Positions 18,668-29,541 of a DNA stretch of 64,000 nt are shown piece after piece. The translations under genes were made by a program, and so were the position numbers. The DNA is from Anaerolineales bacterium (GTDB lineage: Bacteria > Chloroflexota > Anaerolineae > Anaerolineales > Villigracilaceae): the NCBI GenBank assembly GCA_016934715.1, contig JAFGSI010000011.1, positions 2,227 through 66,226 on the forward strand, in the 5' to 3' direction. Position 1 is the first letter of the stretch; the number at the start of each line of letters is the position of its first letter. The notes under the pieces were generated by a model, which was not told the origin of the DNA, searched no databases, and was given only the letters and a program-made list of their open reading frames with translations.

Positions 18668-20209
18668 ATGGCCATAAATCTTCAGGGAGTTGGTGTAAAA
18701 TACCCAATAGAGTCGCTCCTCATGTCCGGGCAAGCATTCGATCAACTGCTTTACTTCATCTACTTTGTCTATGGACTGGCCTTTTTCGGCATGGGCCTGA
18801 CCATGGCACTCGAATCGGGCCGTTCGCCGGCCCTGGCGGAGGCCCGTCTCCTGCGGCCCCTGGCCGCCTTCGGCCTGATCCACGGCTCCCACGAGTGGCT
18901 GGAGGCCTACCTGCTCCAGGCCCACGCCACCGGGGCTGCTCTGCCGGGCTGGCTGGACTGGGCCCGCTGCACAATCCTGGTGACCTCCTTCCTGTTCCTG
19001 CTCAACTACGGGATCCGCACCTTCCAGACACCCGGGTACAGACCGTTGCTCGGGATGCGCCTGGGAATCGCCGTCCTCGGGATCTACAGCCTGGTCATCC
19101 TGGCCAGCGCCATGCTGACCTACTGGAACGGCGAGGTGCCCTGGGCCCGCCTGCTCGACAGCCTGGCCCGTTACCTGCTGGCCGTGCCGGGAGCGGCCCT
19201 GGCAGCCCTGGCGCTGCGCTTCGAGTCGGACGAAGCCAGGAGCCGCGACCGCCGAACACTGTCGCTCTCCCTGACGGTGGCCGCGGCCGGCTTCGGGGTC
19301 TACAGCCTGACCCAGGTCTTCGTCCCGCCGCTGGAGATGGCCCCGGCCAGCTTCCTCAACACGCTCAGCTTCCAGAGCCTGGCCGGCTTCCCGATCCAAC
19401 TGGTGCGCTCGGCGATGGCGGTCATGATCACCCTCAGCCTGGCCCGTGCCACCCAGGAGGTCGAAAAGGAACGCCAGCAGAAGCTGGTGACCGCCCAGCA
19501 GGCCCGCCTGGAGGCCCTCGAGCAGGTCCAGGCCGAACTGACCGGACGCGAGACCTTGCGGCGTGAACTGCTGCGCCATACCGTCCGGGCCCAGGAAGAG
19601 GAGCGCGGCCGGATCGCTCGCGAGCTGCACGACGAAACCGCCCAGGTCCTGGCCGCCTTCGGCCTCGACCTGGCCACCCTGCAGACCATGCTCCCGGTCC
19701 GTCCGGACGCGCAGGCCCTGGTCGGCAGGCTGCAGGCGCACAGCCGGGAGATATCGCAGAGCCTCTACCGCCTGGTCCACGATCTGCGCCCGGCCCAACT
19801 GGACGATCTGGGTCTGGTCCCCGCCCTGGACTACCTGGGCGAGCGTGCGGCAGCCAAGGGACTGGAGCTCCGCCAGCAGATCGTGGGCGAGGTCCGCCGG
19901 CTGGAGCCCGTGATCGAGACAGTGCTCTTCCGGGTCGCCCAGGAGGCGCTCAACAACGTGGCCCGCCACGCCAGCACGAACCAGGCCGAGATTTGCCTGG
20001 TGTACGAGACTCAGGAAGTGACCCTGTGGGTTCGCGACCCGGGCCGCGGATTCAATCCCACCCAGTCCTTCATTCCACCGCGCGGCTGGGGCCTGGCCGG
20101 GATGCGCGAACGGGTCGAATCAGTCGGCGGACACTTAAAAGTTACCTCCGCCCCAGAGGAGGGAACCACCGTCGAGGTGGCCATCCCGGTCTTTGACTTG
20201 ATTCCCTGA
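18668..20209 (+). CDS. Sensor histidine kinase (HisKA_3 type), paralogue of 6146..7660 with the same membrane sensor domain
   Basis: YGLAFFGMGL...LRPLAAFGLIHGSHEWLE matches YGLAFFSMGL...LRPLAAFGLVHALHEWLE in the first kinase. The H-box is ERGRIARELHDETAQ. The start is uncertain; an alternative ATG lies at 18722. Confidence 0.85.
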   Translation: MAINLQGVGVKYPIESLLMSGQAFDQLLYFIYFVYGLAFFGMGLTMALESGRSPALAEARLLRPLAAFGLIHGSHEWLEAYLLQAHATGAALPGWLDWARCTILVTSFLFLLNYGIRTFQTPGYRPLLGMRLGIAVLGIYSLVILASAMLTYWNGEVPWARLLDSLARYLLAVPGAALAALALRFESDEARSRDRRTLSLSLTVAAAGFGVYSLTQVFVPPLEMAPASFLNTLSFQSLAGFPIQLVRSAMAVMITLSLARATQEVEKERQQKLVTAQQARLEALEQVQAELTGRETLRRELLRHTVRAQEEERGRIARELHDETAQVLAAFGLDLATLQTMLPVRPDAQALVGRLQAHSREISQSLYRLVHDLRPAQLDDLGLVPALDYLGERAAAKGLELRQQIVGEVRRLEPVIETVLFRVAQEALNNVARHASTNQAEICLVYETQEVTLWVRDPGRGFNPTQSFIPPRGWGLAGMRERVESVGGHLKVTSAPEEGTTVEVAIPVFDLIP

Positions 20210-20229
20210 TCACAGGTTGAAGGGAGAAG

Positions 20230-20928
20230 GTGATGAAAAAGATCCGCCTGATGCTGGTCGACGACCACGACGTGGTGCGCGCCGGCCTGAAGTCCTACCT
20301 GCAGACCCAGGAAGACTTCGAGGTCATTGCTGAGGCCAGCAACGGCCAGGAGGCGCTCGAACGCACCCGGGATGCCTGCCCGGATGTGATCCTGATGGAT
20401 ATCACCATGCCCGGAATGGATGGGATGGAGGCCACCCGCCAGATGCGGGCCCGCAACCCGCAGTGCCTGATCCTGGCCCTGACCGTCCACGATGACAAAC
20501 AGTACTTCATGCAGATGCTGGCCGCGGGTGCCTCCGGGTACATCACCAAACAGGCTGCCCCCGACGAACTGATCGCTGCCATCCACACCATCGCCGCTGG
20601 CAACGTTTATCTCCAGCCGGCGCTGGCCCGCTGGCTGCTGGAAGATTACCAGCGCCTGGCCGGCCAGGCCGACCTGGTCGAACCGGCCTCCCCGCTCGCG
20701 GCAGAGCAGGATACCATGGTCGACCTGCAGGTGCTCAGCCAGCGCGAACGCCAGGTGCTCGAACTGGTGGCGGAGGGCCATAACAATAACGAGATCGGCG
20801 ATCGCCTGGGCCTGAGCCCCAAGACGATCGCCCGCCATCGCGAGCGCATCATGAACAAACTCAACATGCACTCGCGCACCGAACTGGTCAAGTTTGCCAT
20901 CCGCACGGGGCTGGTGCAGTTACATTAG
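20230..20928 (+). CDS. Response regulator, NarL/LuxR family
   Basis: Receiver domain IRLMLVDDHDVV...DVILMDITMPGMDG plus a LuxR HTH, LSQRERQVLELVAEGHNNNEIGDRLGLSPKTIARHRERIMNKL. Confidence 0.9.
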   Translation: MMKKIRLMLVDDHDVVRAGLKSYLQTQEDFEVIAEASNGQEALERTRDACPDVILMDITMPGMDGMEATRQMRARNPQCLILALTVHDDKQYFMQMLAAGASGYITKQAAPDELIAAIHTIAAGNVYLQPALARWLLEDYQRLAGQADLVEPASPLAAEQDTMVDLQVLSQRERQVLELVAEGHNNNEIGDRLGLSPKTIARHRERIMNKLNMHSRTELVKFAIRTGLVQLH

Positions 20929-21018: not shown

Positions 21019-21498
21019 ATGCGACTTAAATTCATCCTGGGCGGAGTTGCCATCCTGGCCGCCATCGTCTTCCTGATCGCCACATCCATGAACGCCAGTG
21101 CCGAATACTTCCTGACGGTCGACGAGGTCCAGGCCCGCCAAAGCGAGATCGTCGGGCGCAATCTGCGCATATCCGGCGCCGTGATTGGTGATACAATTTC
21201 CTATGAGCCGGATTCCCTGACCCTGACCTTCGTGATCGCCCATATCCCGGGCGGCAATCGCGAGATCGAAGCCCAGGGCGGACTGGCCCTGGTGCTGCAT
21301 GAAGCGGTCACAGATCCGACCCGGACCCGCCTGACCGTGGTCTACATCGGTCCGAAGCCGGACCTCCTGCAGGATGAGGCCCAGGCGATCGTCACCGGCC
21401 AGTTGGGCGACGACGGCATCTTCTACGCGGACGAACTCCTGCTCAAGTGCCCGACCCGCTACGAGGAGGCGCTCCCCGAGCAGGCCCTCGAGAACTAG
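21019..21498 (+). CDS. ccmE: Cytochrome c maturation haem chaperone CcmE, Cys variant (CxxxY instead of HxxxY)
   Basis: An N-terminal TM anchor and OB-fold region are followed by FYADELLLKCPTRYEE. This aligns to the canonical ADE(V/L)LAKHDExY with His replaced by Cys. AGGAGG lies upstream of the ATG at 21019. Confidence 0.8.
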   Translation: MRLKFILGGVAILAAIVFLIATSMNASAEYFLTVDEVQARQSEIVGRNLRISGAVIGDTISYEPDSLTLTFVIAHIPGGNREIEAQGGLALVLHEAVTDPTRTRLTVVYIGPKPDLLQDEAQAIVTGQLGDDGIFYADELLLKCPTRYEEALPEQALEN

Positions 21499-21584
21499 TT
21501 TGACAGATGTGACGGCTTTCGAGGTACGAGCGGAACTCCCGCTGGGAACTTCGCGAAGCCGTTCCTTTGTTTTAAGGAGTCGCC

Positions 21585-23591
21585 ATGTTCATTGATTTTG
21601 GCTTCGGCATCCTGGTCCTGACCCTGGCGGTGACGCTGTTCAGCATTGCTGCAGCGCTGTACGGCTTCTACACAGGATCCCCACGCTGGGTCGAAAGCGC
21701 CCGCCGGGCGATGCAATTGACCTTCCCGCTGATCACCCTGGTGGCCCTGGCCCTGATCTACCTGCTCGTCAGCGGCCATTACGAGGTCCAGTTCGTCTAC
21801 TCGGTGACCAGCAACGAGATGCCCCTGTACCTCAAGATCACAGCCCTGTGGGGAGGGCAGGAAGGATCGCTGATCCTGTGGGCCTGGCTGCTGGCAGTTT
21901 TCACCAGCGCCGTGACCCTGCGCAAGTGGGATCGCGACCAGGAGCTGCTGCCCTGGGTGATCATCGTCACGGCGATCACGCTGGCCTTCTTCCTGGCCCT
22001 GGTGATCTTCTTTGAAAATCCCTTCGCCCGCTGGTGGATCCTGCCCGACAACACCCCGGTGGCGGCCATGTTCCAGCCGAGCGGAGCCGTGCCAGCCTTC
22101 CCGAACAACGGCGAGGGCCTCAACCCGCTGCTGCGCCACCCCGGGATGATCATCCACCCGCCGATGCTCTACCTGGGCTTCGTGGCCTTCGTGATCCCCT
22201 ACGCCTTCGCGATTGCCGCCCTGGTCACCGGCCGGACCGATGACCGCTGGCTGCGCCTGACCCGCCGCTGGACCCTGATCGCCTGGCTGTTCCTGTCGAT
22301 CGGCCTGGTGCTGGGTGCCCGCTGGGCCTACGACGTGCTTGGCTGGGGAGGGTACTGGGGATGGGACCCGGTCGAGATCGCCGCCTTCATGCCCTGGCTG
22401 ACCGGCACCGCCTTCCTGCACTCGGTCATGATCCAGGAGAAGCGCGGCCTGTTCAAGCAGTGGAACATGATCCTGGTCATCCTGACCTATTCGCTGGTCC
22501 TCTTCGGCACCTTCCTGACCCGTTCCGGGGTGCTTTCCTCGGTGCACGCCTTCGCCCAGAGCGCCATCGGGCCGATGTTCTTCAGCTTCATCGGAGTCAC
22601 CTTTATCACCTCGCTGGTCCTGCTCTTCCACCGCTGGAAGGACCTGACTGCCACGATTGAGATGAAATCGATGCTCTCACGCGAGGCCCTGTTTCTGCTC
22701 AACAACCTGCTCTTCATCGGCGTCCTGATCATCTGCTTCTGGGGAGTGGTCTCCCCGTTGATCTCCGAGCTGGCCACCGGCCAGAAGATCACCGTCGGGC
22801 CGCCGTTCTACGAGCGGGCCACCTCCCCACTGTGGGGCGCCCTGATGCTGCTGATGGGCGTGGCGCCTCTCTCGGCCTGGGGCAAGTCGACGTTCACCAC
22901 CCTCGGCAAGGCGCTCTGGAAGCCGGCCCTCCTGGCCGCGCTGACCCCTCTTATGCTGGCCGCCCTGGGCATGCGCAACTGGGTCGCCCTGCTCGGCTTC
23001 ACCCTGGTAGCCCTGGTCATCTTCGTCAGCCTGCACGAATACTGGCGCGGCGCCCGCGCCCGCCAGAAGGCCCAGGGCGAGGGCTTCTTGACCGCCCTGG
23101 CGCGCCTGGCTGCCCGCAACCGGCGCCGCTACGGCGGCTACATCATCCACATCAGCATGGTCATCATGGCCATCGGCATCCTGGGCATCGAGATCTTCCA
23201 GACCGAGACCCAGCGCAACATGGCGATCGGCGACCAGGTCGAGCTGGCCGGCTACACCGTGCGCTACGACTCGCTGGCCCAGTTCCCCTACAGCGACGGG
23301 CGCTTCGTCACCCGGGCGGTCATGAGCGTCTTCAAGGCAGGTGAATTCGTGGATGAGATCTACCCGCGCTACGACCTCTACCCGGGCGGCCAGCCCATGA
23401 CCATTCCAGGCGTCCGCAGCACCCTGGTCGATGACCTGTATGTGGTGCTGGTCAACTGGGAGAACGTCTCGGCCACCCAGACCCCCTTCAAGATCTATCA
23501 CAACCCGCTGGTCAACTGGCTGTGGATCGGCAGCGGCATCTTCATTCTCGGCTACCTGCTGGCCGCCTGGCCACAGAAAGAGAATGGTTAG
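21585..23591 (+). CDS. ccmF: Cytochrome c haem lyase subunit CcmF
   Basis: 668 aa and polytopic. The WWD motif is WGGYWGWDPVE. AAGGAG RBS is present. Confidence 0.9.
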   Translation: MFIDFGFGILVLTLAVTLFSIAAALYGFYTGSPRWVESARRAMQLTFPLITLVALALIYLLVSGHYEVQFVYSVTSNEMPLYLKITALWGGQEGSLILWAWLLAVFTSAVTLRKWDRDQELLPWVIIVTAITLAFFLALVIFFENPFARWWILPDNTPVAAMFQPSGAVPAFPNNGEGLNPLLRHPGMIIHPPMLYLGFVAFVIPYAFAIAALVTGRTDDRWLRLTRRWTLIAWLFLSIGLVLGARWAYDVLGWGGYWGWDPVEIAAFMPWLTGTAFLHSVMIQEKRGLFKQWNMILVILTYSLVLFGTFLTRSGVLSSVHAFAQSAIGPMFFSFIGVTFITSLVLLFHRWKDLTATIEMKSMLSREALFLLNNLLFIGVLIICFWGVVSPLISELATGQKITVGPPFYERATSPLWGALMLLMGVAPLSAWGKSTFTTLGKALWKPALLAALTPLMLAALGMRNWVALLGFTLVALVIFVSLHEYWRGARARQKAQGEGFLTALARLAARNRRRYGGYIIHISMVIMAIGILGIEIFQTETQRNMAIGDQVELAGYTVRYDSLAQFPYSDGRFVTRAVMSVFKAGEFVDEIYPRYDLYPGGQPMTIPGVRSTLVDDLYVVLVNWENVSATQTPFKIYHNPLVNWLWIGSGIFILGYLLAAWPQKENG

Positions 23592-23617
23592 GCCAGAACC
23601 CCAAAAGGCAAACCGGC

Positions 23618-24133
23618 ATGGACAAGAAACGTCTCCGCATCTCGATTTTCGTCTTGCTCTTCCTGGGACTGAGCTTCCTGTTTTCCGCCGTCCAGGTCCC
23701 CCCGGCCCTGGCCCAGGAGGCCACGCCCTCCGATGACGAGGTCAACGCCATCGCCCGCCAGTTGTACTGCCCGGTCTGCGAGAACACGCCTCTCGACGTC
23801 TGCCCGACCGAGGCCTGCCGCCAGTGGCGCGACCTGATCCGCCAGATGCTGGCCGAAGGCCGCACGGAAGATGAGATCAAGCAGTACTTCGTCGACAACT
23901 ACGGTGCCCGCGTCCTGGCCGAACCGCCCCGCTCGGGATTCTTCTGGCTGGTCTACATCGTCCCGCCGGCGGCCATCCTGGCGGCGGCCTTCTTTTTCAT
24001 CCGCGCCTTTCGGACCTGGAAGCAGATGGCCCGGGAACCAGCCGGCGGCTCCGCGGCGAGCGACGGCGAAGCGTCCCAAACCCGGGACGATTACGCCGCC
24101 CGCCTGGAAGCAGAGCTCGAGAAACGCAAATAA
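23618..24133 (+). CDS. ccmH: Cytochrome c maturation protein CcmH/NrfF/CycL
   Basis: Signal peptide, then IARQLYCPVCENTPLDVC (the LRCxxC-type motif), EDEIKQYFVDNYGARVL, and a TM helix. Confidence 0.8.
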   Translation: MDKKRLRISIFVLLFLGLSFLFSAVQVPPALAQEATPSDDEVNAIARQLYCPVCENTPLDVCPTEACRQWRDLIRQMLAEGRTEDEIKQYFVDNYGARVLAEPPRSGFFWLVYIVPPAAILAAAFFFIRAFRTWKQMAREPAGGSAASDGEASQTRDDYAARLEAELEKRK

Positions 24134-24141
24134 GGAATCGA

Positions 24142-24732
24142 ATGAACGAAAACAACCCGACACCCCCCGCCCCCCGGCGCGGCGCGCCGCTGTGGGTCCA
24201 GATCCTGGTCTTTGCCGCCCTGCTGGGGCTGCTGGTCCTGGTCGGGCTGGGATTGGCCCGCGCCCAGCAGCCGATCATTGCCGTAGGCGCCGCGGTCCCC
24301 GACTTCACCCTGACCCTCTTTGACGGCTACGCGTACAACGGGGCCGGAGAGGTCAGCCTGACCGATCTGCGCGGCCAGGTGGTGGTGATCAACTTCTGGG
24401 CCTCGTGGTGCAAGCCCTGCGAGGAAGAAGCCGCTGACCTGGAAGCCGCCTGGCGCCATTACGCCGCCCAAGCCCCGGGGAGGGTGATCTTCCTGGGCAT
24501 CGACTATGTCGACACCGAGCCGCAGGCGCGTTCCTATCTGGCCAAGTTCGAAATCAGCTTCCCCAACGGCCCCGACATGGGGACGCGCATCTCGCAGGCC
24601 TTCAACCGCACCATGGGTGTGCCCGAGACCTATATCATCGACCAGAACGGGATCCTGGTCCACGTTCAGATCGGGCCGTTCCTGTCGGTGGCAGAAATCC
24701 AGCGGATCATCGATCCGCTCCTGGGGAGGTAA
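24142..24732 (+). CDS. ccmG: Membrane-anchored thiol:disulfide oxidoreductase (TlpA/ResA/CcmG family)
   Basis: TM anchor plus a thioredoxin fold with VVINFWASWCKPCEEE (WCxxC). It sits inside the ccm cluster. Confidence 0.8.
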   Translation: MNENNPTPPAPRRGAPLWVQILVFAALLGLLVLVGLGLARAQQPIIAVGAAVPDFTLTLFDGYAYNGAGEVSLTDLRGQVVVINFWASWCKPCEEEAADLEAAWRHYAAQAPGRVIFLGIDYVDTEPQARSYLAKFEISFPNGPDMGTRISQAFNRTMGVPETYIIDQNGILVHVQIGPFLSVAEIQRIIDPLLGR

Positions 24733-24735
24733 CTG

Positions 24736-25221
24736 ATGGACCTCGGTGCCATTCTCTTGATTTTGGCGGTGCTCGTCGGGGTGGTCCTTTTCGTCGGTCG
24801 GCCCCTGATGACCCGCTTCCGGATGACCGCCCACCAGGACCAGGAACTCTCCGCCCTGCAGGCCAAACACGAAAGCATCCTGACCGCCCTGCAGGAACTC
24901 GACTTCGACAACAGCCTGGACAAGGTCCCGGCCGAGGATTTTTCCATCCAGCGGGCCGAACTGCTCCAGCACGGCGCCGAGGTCCTGCGCCGGCTCGACG
25001 CTCTGCAGGGCAGACCGGCCGCGATCACCGAGGCCCGGGGCGAAGCCGCCAGCGCTTCCCGCCGCCACAAGAAGGCCCTCACCGACGACGACCTGGAAGA
25101 CCTGATCGCCAACCGCCGCAGGGTCGTCAAGCAGAAGGCCGGTGGATTCTGCCCCCAATGCGGCAAACCCGTCCTGCAGTCCGACAGCTTCTGCCCGGCC
25201 TGCGGGGCCAAACTTGCATAA
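24736..25221 (+). CDS. Membrane protein with CcmI-like N-terminal region and C-terminal zinc ribbon
   Basis: TM + RPL motif (ILLILAVLVGVVLFVGRPLMTR), a helical LSALQAKHESILTALQELDFDNSLDKVPAEDFSIQRAELLQ resembling the CcmI/CycH N-terminal module, and a C-terminal FCPQCGKPVLQSDSFCPACGAKL. Confidence 0.4.
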   Translation: MDLGAILLILAVLVGVVLFVGRPLMTRFRMTAHQDQELSALQAKHESILTALQELDFDNSLDKVPAEDFSIQRAELLQHGAEVLRRLDALQGRPAAITEARGEAASASRRHKKALTDDDLEDLIANRRRVVKQKAGGFCPQCGKPVLQSDSFCPACGAKLA

Positions 25222-25248
25222 ATACGGGATGCTCTCAAGGATTTTTGG

Positions 25249-27183
25249 ATGAACTATCGCCTGATCGCCCTCTTTGCACTGCTGCTCCTGGCCCTGACGG
25301 CCTGCTCGCTGGCCGAGGACATCACCCCACCACCCGGTTACCAGTCCCCCACCCCCGTTGCCACCCTCGGCCAGCTCTACCCGGCCGAGCCGCCCTCCCC
25401 CGCCAGCGGCGCAGCGATCTACGTTGAGAAATGCCAGCCCTGTCACGGCGAGACCGGCCTGGGCAATGGCCCGCTGGCCGGCCAGCTGCCCGTCGCCGTC
25501 CCGGCCATCGGGCTGATCGACATCGCCGGCCAGTCCTCCCCGGCCGACTGGTTCACCCTGCTCACCCAGGGGCGCCTCGAGCGCGGCATGCCGCCCTTCC
25601 AGAGCCTGAGCGCCCGGGAGCGCTGGGACGTGCTGGCCTACACCTACACCCTGAGCGCCAGCCCCGAGGCCCTGGCCCAGGCCGCCGACCTGTACACTGC
25701 CCACTGCGCCGTTTGCCACGGCCTCGCTGGCGACGCCAACCCGGCAGCGGACCTGACCGACCAGCAGTACAACGCCGCCGTCACCGGCACCCGCCTGTAT
25801 CGGGCCATTGCCGAGGGCATGCCCCCGTCGATGCCCGCCTACGCCGGTCAGTTCAGCGAAGACCAGATCTGGAGCCTGACAGTCCACCTGCGAACCCTGG
25901 CCTATGCCCCGGCCGCTCAGCCGACCGCCACCCCGGTCCCCACGGCGACCCCCGAACCGGCGGCCAGCGAAATCCCTGCCGCGCAGATCACCGCCGAAGG
26001 GGCCACGGACGAAACCCCCGTGGGCGAGGAGACCCTCACCGCCGGAGCCACTGAATTGGTGAACCCGGAAACGGCCGCACCGACGGAGACCACCGCCTTC
26101 GTGTCCGGCCGCGTGATCCATGGCGCCGGCGGGGTTCTGCCGGCCGACATGACCGCCGTCCTGCACATTTACGATACCGCCCAGGAGGTCAGCTCGATCA
26201 CCGCCTTCCTGGCCAGCGACGGCTCCTTCGCGTTCGGCGACGTTCCCCTGGCCCCCCAGGGTGCCTACCAGGTTCAGGTCGAATACGGCGGCGTGACCTA
26301 CTTCTCGGAGCCGGGCTTCGACGACGGCGCCACGACCGAGTTCGACCTGCCGGTGATCGTCTACGAGTCGACCACCGACGCCTCGGCGATCCTCCTCCTG
26401 CAGGCCCACGTCATCGTCAACCCGCCCTCCAACGGCATGCTGCCGGTGATCGAGATCTTCATCTTCACCAACCCGTCCGACCGCAGCGTTATCTTCGAGG
26501 TCGGCGACCAGGGTCTTTCCTTCCTGCCCGCTCCGCAGGGCGCCACCATCCAGAGCCTGCAGTACTCCGAATCCAGCCTGCCCTTCGTCCCGGCCGGGGA
26601 CGAAAGCTACGCCCTGATCCCCAGCCCCGAAGGCCAGTACGGGATCGTGGCCGTCTATGCCCTGCCCTACGAGGCAGACGAACTGGCCTTCGAGCAGAGC
26701 CTCGGCCTGGAGACAGCCGATCTGACCCTGCTGGTCCCGGATGGGATGCGCCTGCGCGACCACGGCCTGACGGACGCCGGACCGACCGATTTCCAGGGCC
26801 AGCCCTTCCAGCAGTACGGGGCCAGCAACCTGCCGGCCGGCGGGACGCTCGCCTTCACCATCCAGGGCGTTCCTGGCGGGACCGGTGGCTTCAGCCTGGA
26901 CTCGCAGAGCGGACTGGTGATCGGCATGGGCGTCCTGGGGGTGGTCTTCATCGCTGCCGGGGTCTATTTGTACCTGCGCGACCGCTCCAGAGCGAAAGAG
27001 GAGGAGGGGGAGGGGGGCGACGAAGACAGCCTTGAGACCGAGGACGCCCTTGGCGACGACCCGCAGGCGATCATGGATGCCATCATCAGCCTTGATGACC
27101 AGTTCAAGGCCGGCCAGATCGCCGAGGAAGCCTACCAGGAACGGCGCGCCGAACTTAAAGCGCGGCTCAAGCAGCTGAGTTGA
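25249..27183 (+). CDS. Dihaem c-type cytochrome lipoprotein with a large extracytoplasmic domain, late TM helix and SHOCT-like tail
   Basis: Lipobox LLLALTAC. Two class-I cytochrome c domains (CQPCH...MPPF, CAVCH...MPAY). A TM segment LVIGMGVLGVVFIAAGVYLYL, an acidic stretch, then IISLDDQFKAGQIAEEAYQERRAELKARL. Confidence 0.75.
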   Translation: MNYRLIALFALLLLALTACSLAEDITPPPGYQSPTPVATLGQLYPAEPPSPASGAAIYVEKCQPCHGETGLGNGPLAGQLPVAVPAIGLIDIAGQSSPADWFTLLTQGRLERGMPPFQSLSARERWDVLAYTYTLSASPEALAQAADLYTAHCAVCHGLAGDANPAADLTDQQYNAAVTGTRLYRAIAEGMPPSMPAYAGQFSEDQIWSLTVHLRTLAYAPAAQPTATPVPTATPEPAASEIPAAQITAEGATDETPVGEETLTAGATELVNPETAAPTETTAFVSGRVIHGAGGVLPADMTAVLHIYDTAQEVSSITAFLASDGSFAFGDVPLAPQGAYQVQVEYGGVTYFSEPGFDDGATTEFDLPVIVYESTTDASAILLLQAHVIVNPPSNGMLPVIEIFIFTNPSDRSVIFEVGDQGLSFLPAPQGATIQSLQYSESSLPFVPAGDESYALIPSPEGQYGIVAVYALPYEADELAFEQSLGLETADLTLLVPDGMRLRDHGLTDAGPTDFQGQPFQQYGASNLPAGGTLAFTIQGVPGGTGGFSLDSQSGLVIGMGVLGVVFIAAGVYLYLRDRSRAKEEEGEGGDEDSLETEDALGDDPQAIMDAIISLDDQFKAGQIAEEAYQERRAELKARLKQLS

Positions 27184-27214
27184 ACCGTTCCGCCCGTCGA
27201 AAATCGTTGCTCTC

Positions 27215-27906
<692 letters not shown>

Positions 27907-27910
<4 letters not shown>

Positions 27911-28623
27911 GCAGCGATCGCAAGGGACCCACGCCCTCCAGCCGTCCGCCGGCCAGTTTTTCCCGGGCCGTCTTCGCGGTGGCCTGGAAGGACCTGGCTG
28001 CCGAACTGCGCTCACGCGAGCTGCTCTCGGCCATGCTGGTCTTCGCCCTGCTGGTGATCCTGATCTTCAACTTTGCCATCGAACTGGCCCCCAGCCTGCG
28101 TCCGACCGTCACCCCCGGTGTGCTGTGGGTCACCTTCGCCTTCGCCGGGACCCTGGGCCTGAACCGCTCGATGGCCATCGAGAAGGACCGCGGCTGCCTT
28201 GACGGCCTGCTGCTCGCCCCGGTGGACCGGGCGGCGATCTACTTCGGCAAGATGCTCAGCAACCTGACCTTCATGCTGATCGTCGAGATCGTCGTCCTGC
28301 CAGTCTACAGCCTGCTGTACAACACCAACCTGTTCGTCCCCGGCCTGCTGGGTGTGATCCTGCTCGGCTCGATCGGCTACGTCGCCGTCGGGACGCTGCT
28401 GGCCAGCATGGCCGTCCAGACCCGCACGCGGGACGTCCTGCTGCCCATCCTGCTCTTCCCGGTCATCGTGCCGGTCCTGCTTTCGGCAGTGCGGGCCAGT
28501 GGCGGGTTCCTGCAGGGCCTGCCCATGGAACAGATCCGGCCCTGGATCAACCTGCTGGCCGCCTATGACGTCATCTTCCTGGCAGTCGCCTACATGGTCT
28601 TCGACCAGGTGGTCGAAGAATAA
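27907..28623 (+). CDS. ccmB: Haem exporter membrane protein CcmB
   Basis: 238 aa and polytopic. It overlaps the ccmA stop. The position and hydrophobicity pattern fit CcmB. Confidence 0.75.
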
Positions 28624-28675
28624 CCTGCCGCCGATCCAATTATTGGTCGTTCCTCCCCCCTACGAAAGGATGCTG

Positions 28676-29374
28676 ATGAAACCGCAACCCAAAGCCCTTA
28701 CCTTTCTGACCCTGCTCTCCGCCCTGTTCTTGGCCGGGGCGCTGGCGATGGTCTTCCTGTATGCCCCGCTGGAAGCAGTGATGAACTACGTCCAGAAGAT
28801 CTTCTACTTCCACGTCGCCACCGCCTGGGTCGGCATGCTCGGCTTCATCGTCGCTGCCGTGGCCGGGGTACTCTACCTGATCAGGAAAGACCTGAAGTGG
28901 GACATCGTCGAGCTGGCCGCCGTGGAGATCAGCCTGGTCTTCTTCCTGATCGCCATCGTCAGCGGTTCGATCTGGGCCCGCCCATCCTGGGGCACCTGGT
29001 GGACCTGGGACGCCCGCCTGACCACCGCCGCCATCCTGGAACTGGTCTACCTGGCCTACCTGCTCCTGCGCCAGGGCATCGAGGACCCCGAGCGGCGCGC
29101 CCGCTTTGGGGCGGTCTACACCCTGATCGGCGGGATCAGCGTTCCGGTCACTTTCCTGTCGATCCGCCTCTGGCAGACCATCCACCCGGCCATCATCGGC
29201 ACCGCCAGCGCCGAGGCCCAGGGCGGCTTCGACATGGCCCCGGCCATGCTCCATACCATGTTCTTCGCCCTGATCGCCTTCTCGGTCATCTTCGCCACCC
29301 TGCTCTGGCAGCGCATCCGTCTGGGCAAACTGGCCGAGCAGGTCGAGCAGATGAAACTGAAAATCAGCGAATAA
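28676..29374 (+). CDS. ccmC: Haem exporter/haem-handling protein CcmC
   Basis: WWD motif WGTWWTWDARL. The ORF opens earlier; ATG codons at 28670 and 28676 both follow AAGGA, and the second has the better spacing. Confidence 0.85.
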   Translation: MKPQPKALTFLTLLSALFLAGALAMVFLYAPLEAVMNYVQKIFYFHVATAWVGMLGFIVAAVAGVLYLIRKDLKWDIVELAAVEISLVFFLIAIVSGSIWARPSWGTWWTWDARLTTAAILELVYLAYLLLRQGIEDPERRARFGAVYTLIGGISVPVTFLSIRLWQTIHPAIIGTASAEAQGGFDMAPAMLHTMFFALIAFSVIFATLLWQRIRLGKLAEQVEQMKLKISE

Positions 29375-29385
29375 ACGAGGCTTCC

Positions 29386-29541
29386 ATGATCCCATACGCG
29401 ATTTCCATCAAGTACATGATCGGTGGTTACGCCGTGATCTTCAGCATCCTGGCGATCTACCTGGTCAGCTTCTTCGTCCGCTTCCGCAGCCTGCAGCGCG
29501 ACCTGGAAACCCTGCAGGAATTGGAATCTGAAGATAAGTAG
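29386..29541 (+). CDS. ccmD: Small single-TM protein in the CcmD position
   Basis: 51 aa: MIPYAISIKYMIGGYAVIFSILAIYLVSFFVRFRSLQRDLETLQELESEDK. GAGG RBS. It lies immediately after ccmC. Confidence 0.55.
   Translation: MIPYAISIKYMIGGYAVIFSILAIYLVSFFVRFRSLQRDLETLQELESEDK

Follow-up and report, generated by a model that had tools for sequence, protein, structure and literature searches.

Does a cytochrome c maturation operon that joins a Cys-type haem chaperone, CcmE, to the partner protein CcmH have to be a hybrid of two systems? The question is raised by the ccm operon in a 64,000-nucleotide stretch of DNA from an Anaerolineales bacterium (GTDB family Villigracilaceae; assembly GCA_016934715.1, contig JAFGSI010000011.1, positions 2,227 to 66,226 of the forward strand), which we call the window and which an initial annotation had read as a hybrid between canonical System I and its variant, System I*. 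Our analysis indicates that the locus is very probably a single, complete System I operon of the Cys-type (System I*) form, in which Cys-type CcmE and CcmH are an ancestral, vertically inherited combination and not a recombinant one.

The rule that a CXXXY CcmE occurs without CcmH goes back to Allen et al. 2006 and Goddard et al. 2010, as these are reported in PMC3601427 and PMC9084895, and is still restated for archaea (PMC9084895). It was withdrawn by the same group in Stevens et al. 2011 (FEBS J 278:4170, section 'System I*'; PMC3601427), who place Cys-type CcmE mainly in delta-proteobacteria, add that 'chloroflexi and firmicutes also feature', and find CcmH in about one-third of the bacteria with a Cys-type CcmE. 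A CcmH homologue has also been reported in one archaeon, Ferroglobus placidus (Kletzin et al. 2015). Through Stevens et al. 2011, the literature thus already covers both the combination and the phylum. The premise of the hybrid reading, that CxxxY systems lack CcmH, is right for System I* as first defined in 2006, a definition that the window does not fit, and no longer right since that criterion was dropped in 2011.

Cys144 of CcmE lies at the haem-attachment position

The gene and the two codons that matter most are:
21019..21498, + strand: ccmE, Cys-type haem chaperone of 159 amino acids (PF03100), with an N-terminal membrane anchor, an OB-fold and a C-terminal KCPTRY
21448..21450, + strand: TGC codon for Cys144; structure alignments pair this residue with E. 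coli CcmE His130, to which haem is attached
21460..21462, + strand: codon for Tyr148; structure alignments pair this residue with E. coli Tyr134, which ligates the haem iron in holo-CcmE

The ccmE open reading frame translates without a stop into 159 residues ending in FYADELLLKCPTRYEEALPEQALEN, a C-terminal end also written as DELLLKCPTRYEEALPEQALEN, and its start at 21019 is backed by homologues of 159–162 amino acids aligned at 97–100% coverage. The product matches PF03100 with 82.1 bits (cut-off 24.6) over residues 29–150, and the hydrophobic N-terminus LKFILGGVAILAAIVFLIA precedes this domain. In phmmer alignments to CcmEs of solved structure, 'ade-lllkcptry' of the window protein pairs with 'ake-vlakhdeny' of E. 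coli (8ce8_E, 1sr3_A), 'lllkcptry' with 'vlakhdeny' of Shewanella (1j6q), and the KCP segment with 'lmtkcp' of the Cys-type CcmE of Desulfovibrio vulgaris (2kct). Cys144 is the only Cys in the protein, and its His residues are confined to positions 75 and 94, within the OB domain. Together with the alignments, this makes Cys144 the positional counterpart of His130, and Tyr148 that of Tyr134. In a jackhmmer alignment with His-type CcmEs found elsewhere in Chloroflexota (KHDENY, KHGPEF), their His shares the column of Cys144.

The canonical HxxxY of His-type CcmE is thus missing, with Cys144 standing in the His130 column, and KCPTRY conforms to the CxxxY of the Cys-type, System I* protein. This state is constant among relatives: all 120 closest CcmE homologues (69–77% identity) carry KCPT[KR]Y, and Cys is present in 94 of 94 readable motif regions among the 150 50%-cluster representatives listed. 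The structure-based and Chloroflexota His-type alignments, and the KCP shared with D. vulgaris 2kct, bear out the initial annotation in both of its statements on this gene, namely that Cys replaces the haem-binding His and that the protein is the known CXXXY variant.

The OB-fold also carries an insert of about 24 residues (residues ~79–104, window 21253–21330; GNREIEAQGGLALVLHEAVTDPTRTR), which is common to the family of the window and its sister family and breaks up NCBIfam equivalog matches; the Pfam match spans 366 nucleotides here and about 290 in other Chloroflexota. Elsewhere in the phylum, three loci of one GTDB family (L007, L008 and L012 of f29, in our own labels) have two tandem Cys-type ccmE genes (KCPHSY, KCPSKY) upstream of ccmF.

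The second gene downstream encodes a CcmH

23618..24133, + strand: ccmH, 171 amino acids (PF03918), with a signal/anchor helix, a periplasmic three-helix domain with LYCPVC, a C-terminal transmembrane helix and a cytoplasmic tail

The initial annotation had also pointed to a clear CcmH homologue two genes downstream, and this is what we find: ccmH is the second gene after ccmE, following ccmF, and its product matches PF03918 with 85.7 bits (cut-off 25). Its LYCPVCEN aligns with LRCPKCQN of the CcmHs of E. coli (2kw0) and Pseudomonas aeruginosa (2hl7), with Tyr replacing Arg. An AlphaFold (AF2) model of the protein (predicted local distance difference test score, pLDDT, 77.5) has as its best Foldseek matches the same two structures, 2hl7 (TM-score 0.66, root-mean-square deviation 2.3 Å) and 2kw0 (TM-score 0.63), both scores normalised on the target and with probability 1.00. 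The predicted helices 3–24 and 108–139 are compatible with membrane anchors, and the protein has the features that define the family (three-helix domain, CxxC redox motif, membrane anchoring), with Arg changed to Tyr.

Cys-type CcmE and CcmH commonly occur together in Chloroflexota

Named homologues put the organism in Anaerolineales, close to Candidatus Villigracilis-type MAGs. To see how usual its pairing is, 401 evenly sampled Chloroflexota genomes were surveyed, of which 283 have CcmE and 219 have CcmH; in the GTDB family to which the window belongs, each of the 25 genomes sampled encodes the two proteins. The haem-binding motif was read in 97 genomes and crossed with the genome-wide presence of CcmH, as follows:
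Cys-type CcmE, CcmH present: 62 genomes, 31 GTDB families
Cys-type CcmE, CcmH absent: 17 genomes, 12 GTDB families
His-type CcmE, CcmH present: 18 genomes, 10 GTDB families
His-type CcmE, CcmH absent: 0 genomes, 0 GTDB families

Most of the typed Cys-type genomes also encode CcmH (62 of 79, a figure whose direction is clear and whose size is indicative). A back-translated pattern search with one genome per species returned 495 relatives of the window CcmH, and the best 80 were examined. All 80 belong to Chloroflexota, chiefly to Anaerolineales, and wherever both genes lie in a named locus among them CcmE is of the Cys type (72 of 72).

CcmH is probably shared by descent and was lost in some relatives

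Trees of CcmE, CcmF and CcmH each group the window with Anaerolineae, which argues for co-inheritance and against a recombinant origin. On the CcmE tree as on the CcmF tree, the window sequence belongs to a 13-row clade with a support of 99 in the Shimodaira–Hasegawa-like approximate likelihood ratio test (SH-aLRT), and the window CcmH groups with other four-Cys CcmHs, 13 in all, of which 11 come from Anaerolineae and two from further Chloroflexota families (SH-aLRT 94). L121 and L123, two sister-family loci in whose genomes CcmH is missing at E <= 1e-5, lie within the CcmH-bearing CcmF clade with support 100, and the absence of CcmH in them is therefore best taken as a secondary loss. To judge from these trees, CcmH is ancestral to the Cys-type operon of the clade and was later lost in some of its members.

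The two loci have kept ccmE(Cys)-ccmF, and ccmH, ccmG and the two genes that follow them in the window, for a zinc-ribbon protein and a lipoprotein that we call X, are gone as a block (L121, G076:C1:154001-174000; L123, G202:C76); ccmF is followed there by unrelated genes or directly by ccmA.

The hybrid reading thus fails, because the combination was reported by Stevens et al. 2011, is found in 62 of the 79 typed Cys-type genomes and is seen in 72 of 72 related loci that hold both genes; the trees point the same way. The survey of CcmH in CxxxY genomes that the initial annotation had proposed shows a common pairing and not a peculiarity of a hybrid, and the locus is ordinary for its clade.

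Weighing against our reading are the make-up of the typed set, whose 97 genomes are non-random (best Pfam scorers plus chosen families), so that 62 of 79 is indicative only; the trees, which are quick maximum-likelihood trees and, for CcmE and CcmH, are built on short proteins; and a review (PMC3884852) according to which D. vulgaris CcmE, unlike that of D. desulfuricans, binds ferric haem non-covalently via the conserved Cys.

On the CcmF tree, His-type systems (KHDENY, KHGPEF, KHSxxY; loci L085–L120) are scattered among the Cys-type ones, and its well-supported branches force at least four His/Cys changes. This implies either repeated switching of the haem-binding residue in Chloroflexota or movement of ccmE between operons.

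No cytochrome c maturation system other than this operon is recognised in the genome

Ten closely packed genes on the + strand, from 21019 to 29541, make up the operon in the order ccmE(Cys)-ccmF-ccmH-ccmG-znr-X-ccmA-B-C-D. Besides ccmE and ccmH, they are:
21585..23591, + strand: ccmF, haem lyase of 668 amino acids (CcmF_C 178.5 bits, Cytochrom_C_asm 142.5 bits)
24142..24732, + strand: ccmG-like thioredoxin of the TlpA/ResA family, 196 amino acids, WCKPC with Cys90/Cys93 (AhpC-TSA, Redoxin, Thioredoxin_8)
24736..25221, + strand: membrane protein of 161 amino acids with an N-terminal transmembrane helix and a C-terminal zinc ribbon, CPQC...CPAC (Zn_Ribbon_1)
25249..27183, + strand: lipoprotein X of 644 amino acids with two c-type haem domains (CQPCH, CAVCH), a beta-rich middle, a transmembrane helix and a cytoplasmic helical tail (Cytochrome_CBB3, twice)
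27215..27910, + strand: ccmA, ATP-binding cassette (ABC) ATPase (TIGR01189, 142.5 bits, cut-off 131.6)
27907..28623, + strand: ccmB, ABC permease (PF03379 CcmB, 102.7 bits)
28670..29374, + strand: ccmC, haem loading onto CcmE (TIGR01191, 132 bits; start ATG at 28670 or 28676)
29386..29541, + strand: ccmD-like gene for a 51-amino-acid protein with one transmembrane helix (position after ccmC, transmembrane helix, charged tail)

CcmE, CcmF, CcmH, CcmA, CcmB and CcmC are all recognised by Pfam or NCBIfam. CcmF aligns over its full length with Thermus thermophilus CcmF (6zmq, E = 8.7e-94) and keeps the WWD motif (WGGYWGWDPVE) as well as the His residues of IIHPP, FLHSV, SVHAF and IIHIS, each opposite a Thermus His. 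These conserved residues would correspond to the P-His or TM-His of the family, which ligate the b-haem and the incoming haem. Alignment of CcmC with its E. coli counterpart (7f02) shows the WWD motif WGTWWTWDARLT and both His residues (FHV, IHP) conserved. The thioredoxin stays below the NCBIfam cut-offs for DsbE (48 against 123 bits) and ResA (75 against 170), and is best named TlpA/ResA-like; its position in the operon suggests the role of CcmG. The 51-residue open reading frame has no Pfam (including PF04995) or NCBIfam match; its position and size, its single transmembrane helix with a charged tail, and the homologous small open reading frames that follow ccmC in other loci mark it as a putative ccmD. 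No CcmI of the tetratricopeptide repeat type was detected in the operon.

Across the genome (97.8% complete, 88 contigs), there are one CcmE, one CcmF and, above cut-off, one CcmH, and no ResB, and with it no System II, was found; no other machinery for cytochrome c maturation is therefore recognisable in this organism. The initial annotation had raised against itself the possibility of a further, canonical HxxxY CcmE; this was looked for genome-wide, and no second CcmE appears at E <= 1. On these searches, an alternative route through System II (ResB absent) and a redundant copy beside a canonical CcmE (one CcmE only) were rejected. Two DsbD_TM/CcdA candidates are encoded elsewhere in the genome. 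The catalytic signatures are intact, comprising Cys144/Tyr148 of CcmE, the WWD and four His of CcmF, the WWD and two His of CcmC, CPVC of CcmH and WCKPC of the CcmG-like protein, and on these signatures the operon is predicted to be intact and functional.

In the mechanism that the protein families suggest, CcmABCD would export haem and, through CcmC, load it onto Cys144 of CcmE, with a bond that, by analogy with D. desulfuricans, would be a thioether, and with Tyr148 as iron ligand. CcmAB and CcmD would release holo-CcmE, and CcmF with CcmH would pass the haem to apocytochromes, whose CXXCH thiols would be kept reduced by a relay from CcdA, encoded elsewhere, through the CcmG-like thioredoxin to CPVC of CcmH. 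Multihaem cytochrome genes lie directly upstream on the opposite strand, and their products would be among the substrates.

Alternative explanations

A first alternative concerns how CcmE holds the haem. If Cys144 were not covalently attached, its thiolate and Tyr148 would only ligate the haem iron, and CcmF and CcmH would take haem from a non-covalent complex. This is the mode reported for the Cys-type CcmE of D. vulgaris (PMC3884852), and Stevens et al. 2011 (PMC3601427) note how difficult it would be to cleave a thioether to CcmE. Set against it is the haem bound covalently in vivo to the Cys-type CcmEs of D. desulfuricans and Methanosarcina acetivorans, as summarised in PMC9084895 and PMC3601427. 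The sequence has no feature that discriminates between the two modes, and we regard the non-covalent one as unlikely.

A further possibility starts from the cysteines of CcmH:
23768..23818, + strand: four-Cys segment of CcmH, C51-PV-C54-ENTPLDV-C62-PTEA-C67 (CPVC-x7-C-x4-C, by alignment)

The CcmHs of E. coli and P. aeruginosa have the CXXC pair only, with Ser and Ala ('ADSxxxxA') where the window protein has C62 and C67, and all four Cys are unchanged in an alignment of 32 relatives. In the Chloroflexota sample, four-Cys CcmHs occur in five Anaerolineae families (f1, f2, f3, f4, f8) and in two others (f56, f65), every time with a Cys-type CcmE (13 sampled loci, to which about 78 named loci with the same pairing are added). 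No published description of a multi-cysteine CcmH was found in the literature searched, whose coverage was limited, and the second Cys pair may be an undescribed feature. These CcmHs of Anaerolineae and the two further Chloroflexota families could then be a distinct subtype with a second Cys pair dedicated to Cys-type CcmE, where it would resolve the CcmE-Cys-haem thioether or mixed disulfides with the CcmE thiol, or form a four-Cys metal site, and CcmH, CcmG, the zinc-ribbon protein and X would be one module gained or lost jointly. The four-Cys sequences do form one group on the CcmH tree, and CcmH, CcmG and X are jointly absent from the operon in CcmH-less relatives, as is the zinc-ribbon gene in two of three. 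However, many Cys-CcmE families have a two-Cys CcmH or none, which weighs against a strict link: in the Chloroflexota sample, an ordinary two-Cys CcmH accompanies Cys-type CcmE in at least 13 families, and CcmH is absent in 12. The second pair is therefore not needed for Cys-type chemistry. The four-Cys clade may, moreover, reflect just one to three evolutionary events, and we think a dedicated subtype of this kind quite improbable.

A strict pairing of Cys-type CcmE with multi-Cys CcmH was rejected, as it holds in one direction only, many Cys-CcmE lineages having a two-Cys CcmH. All 14 His-type loci sampled have a two-Cys CcmH. At three loci (L091, L107 and L112, in G071, G325 and G095) the open frame that contains the CcmH domain runs for 826–961 codons and overlaps the ccmF frame.

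In a true hybrid, CcmH, with CcmG, would have entered a CcmH-less System I* operon recently by horizontal transfer or recombination. CcmH-less Cys-type operons do exist within the same order (genera g9 and g11 of f2), and CcmE type and CcmF lineage are loosely coupled across the phylum, as a single His-type clade is rejected on the CcmF data (approximately unbiased, AU, test, p = 2.7e-7, weakened in that the quick tree was already in view when the group was defined), and the short CcmE alignment does not reject it (p = 0.56); some mixing of components in Chloroflexota follows from this loose coupling. For the window itself, the Anaerolineae placement of all three proteins, the presence of the pair in all related loci and own-family genomes counted above, and the nesting of CcmH-less relatives inside the CcmH-bearing clade, which marks them as losses, make a recent acquisition very improbable.

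Finally, it is hardly credible that CcmH is an NrfF-like specialist for a dedicated lyase of an unusual haem motif and not the general partner of CcmE and CcmF, since its sole NCBIfam match, to NrfF (TIGR03147), reaches 37 bits, far under the cut-off of 159, the single CcmF/NrfE homologue and single CcmH of the genome leave no second lyase for it to serve, and ccmH lies between ccmF and ccmG of the only ccm operon.

Comparison with known systems and significance

Read as an inherited System I* operon with CcmH, the locus shares with the System I* of D. desulfuricans and D. vulgaris the Cys for His in CcmE with Tyr four residues on (K-C-P-x-x-Y), here as CPTRY where CPSKY is commonest, and the placing of ccmE-ccmF first, before ccmABCD. 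Unlike the Desulfovibrio operon, which according to PMC9084895 and PMC3601427 has neither CcmH nor CcmG, it has CcmH and a CcmG-like thioredoxin, and between ccmG and ccmA it has the genes for the zinc-ribbon protein and the dihaem lipoprotein. With canonical System I (E. coli, Rhodobacter and Thermus; 8CE8, 7F02, 6ZMQ, 2KW0, 2HL7) it has in common the core components, the WWD motifs, the His ligands and the CXXC; it differs in the Cys of CcmE, in LYCPVC (Tyr for Arg) and the two extra Cys of CcmH, in the lack of a detected CcmI and in the gene order E-F-H-G-...-A-B-C-D. The CcmABCEF system of M. acetivorans (PMC9084895) likewise has a Cys-type CcmE, in which haem attachment depends on the Cys, whereas archaeal Ccm is without CcmD, CcmH and CcmI and has a split CcmF, and the window has CcmF as one protein, CcmH, a CcmG-like thioredoxin and a CcmD-like open reading frame. 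The closest precedent is that of the Cys-CcmE bacteria with CcmH in Stevens et al. 2011 (PMC3601427), the same combination with chloroflexi named; it is given there in one sentence, with no locus, organism list or experiment and without the extra CcmH Cys pair or the operon layout.

As the coexistence of Cys-type CcmE and CcmH was already known, the finding changes little by itself. Chloroflexota nevertheless offer close natural variants, namely Cys-type CcmE with a four-Cys, a two-Cys or no CcmH and His-type CcmE with CcmH, some of the CcmH losses being nested within the window's own order. These variants bear on how haem is released from the Cys thioether of CcmE and on what CcmH does beside a Cys-type CcmE, questions posed in PMC9084895 and PMC3601427, and would permit component swaps between near relatives rather than between E. 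coli and Desulfovibrio. The locus is also relevant to expressing the multihaem cytochromes encoded directly upstream, its would-be substrates.

Accessory genes and upstream neighbours

Many ccm operons of Chloroflexota, whether of the Cys or the His type, have homologues of the zinc-ribbon protein and of X in the same slot between ccmG and ccmA. Lipoprotein X, with its two CXXCH, also gives weak matches to the EMC7 beta-sandwich and to GvpG. The cytoplasmic tails of the zinc-ribbon protein, X and CcmH have a common D-x-Y...R.E.EL-like helix, and profile searches of the three therefore cross-hit.

Directly upstream of ccmE (18668–20928) are genes for a histidine kinase and a LuxR-type response regulator, and a kinase/regulator pair also lies directly upstream of ccmE in one genome of the sister family, there on the opposite strand (L123, 4222–6116). 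The recurrence of such a pair in two genomes suggests that regulation of the ccm operon is conserved.

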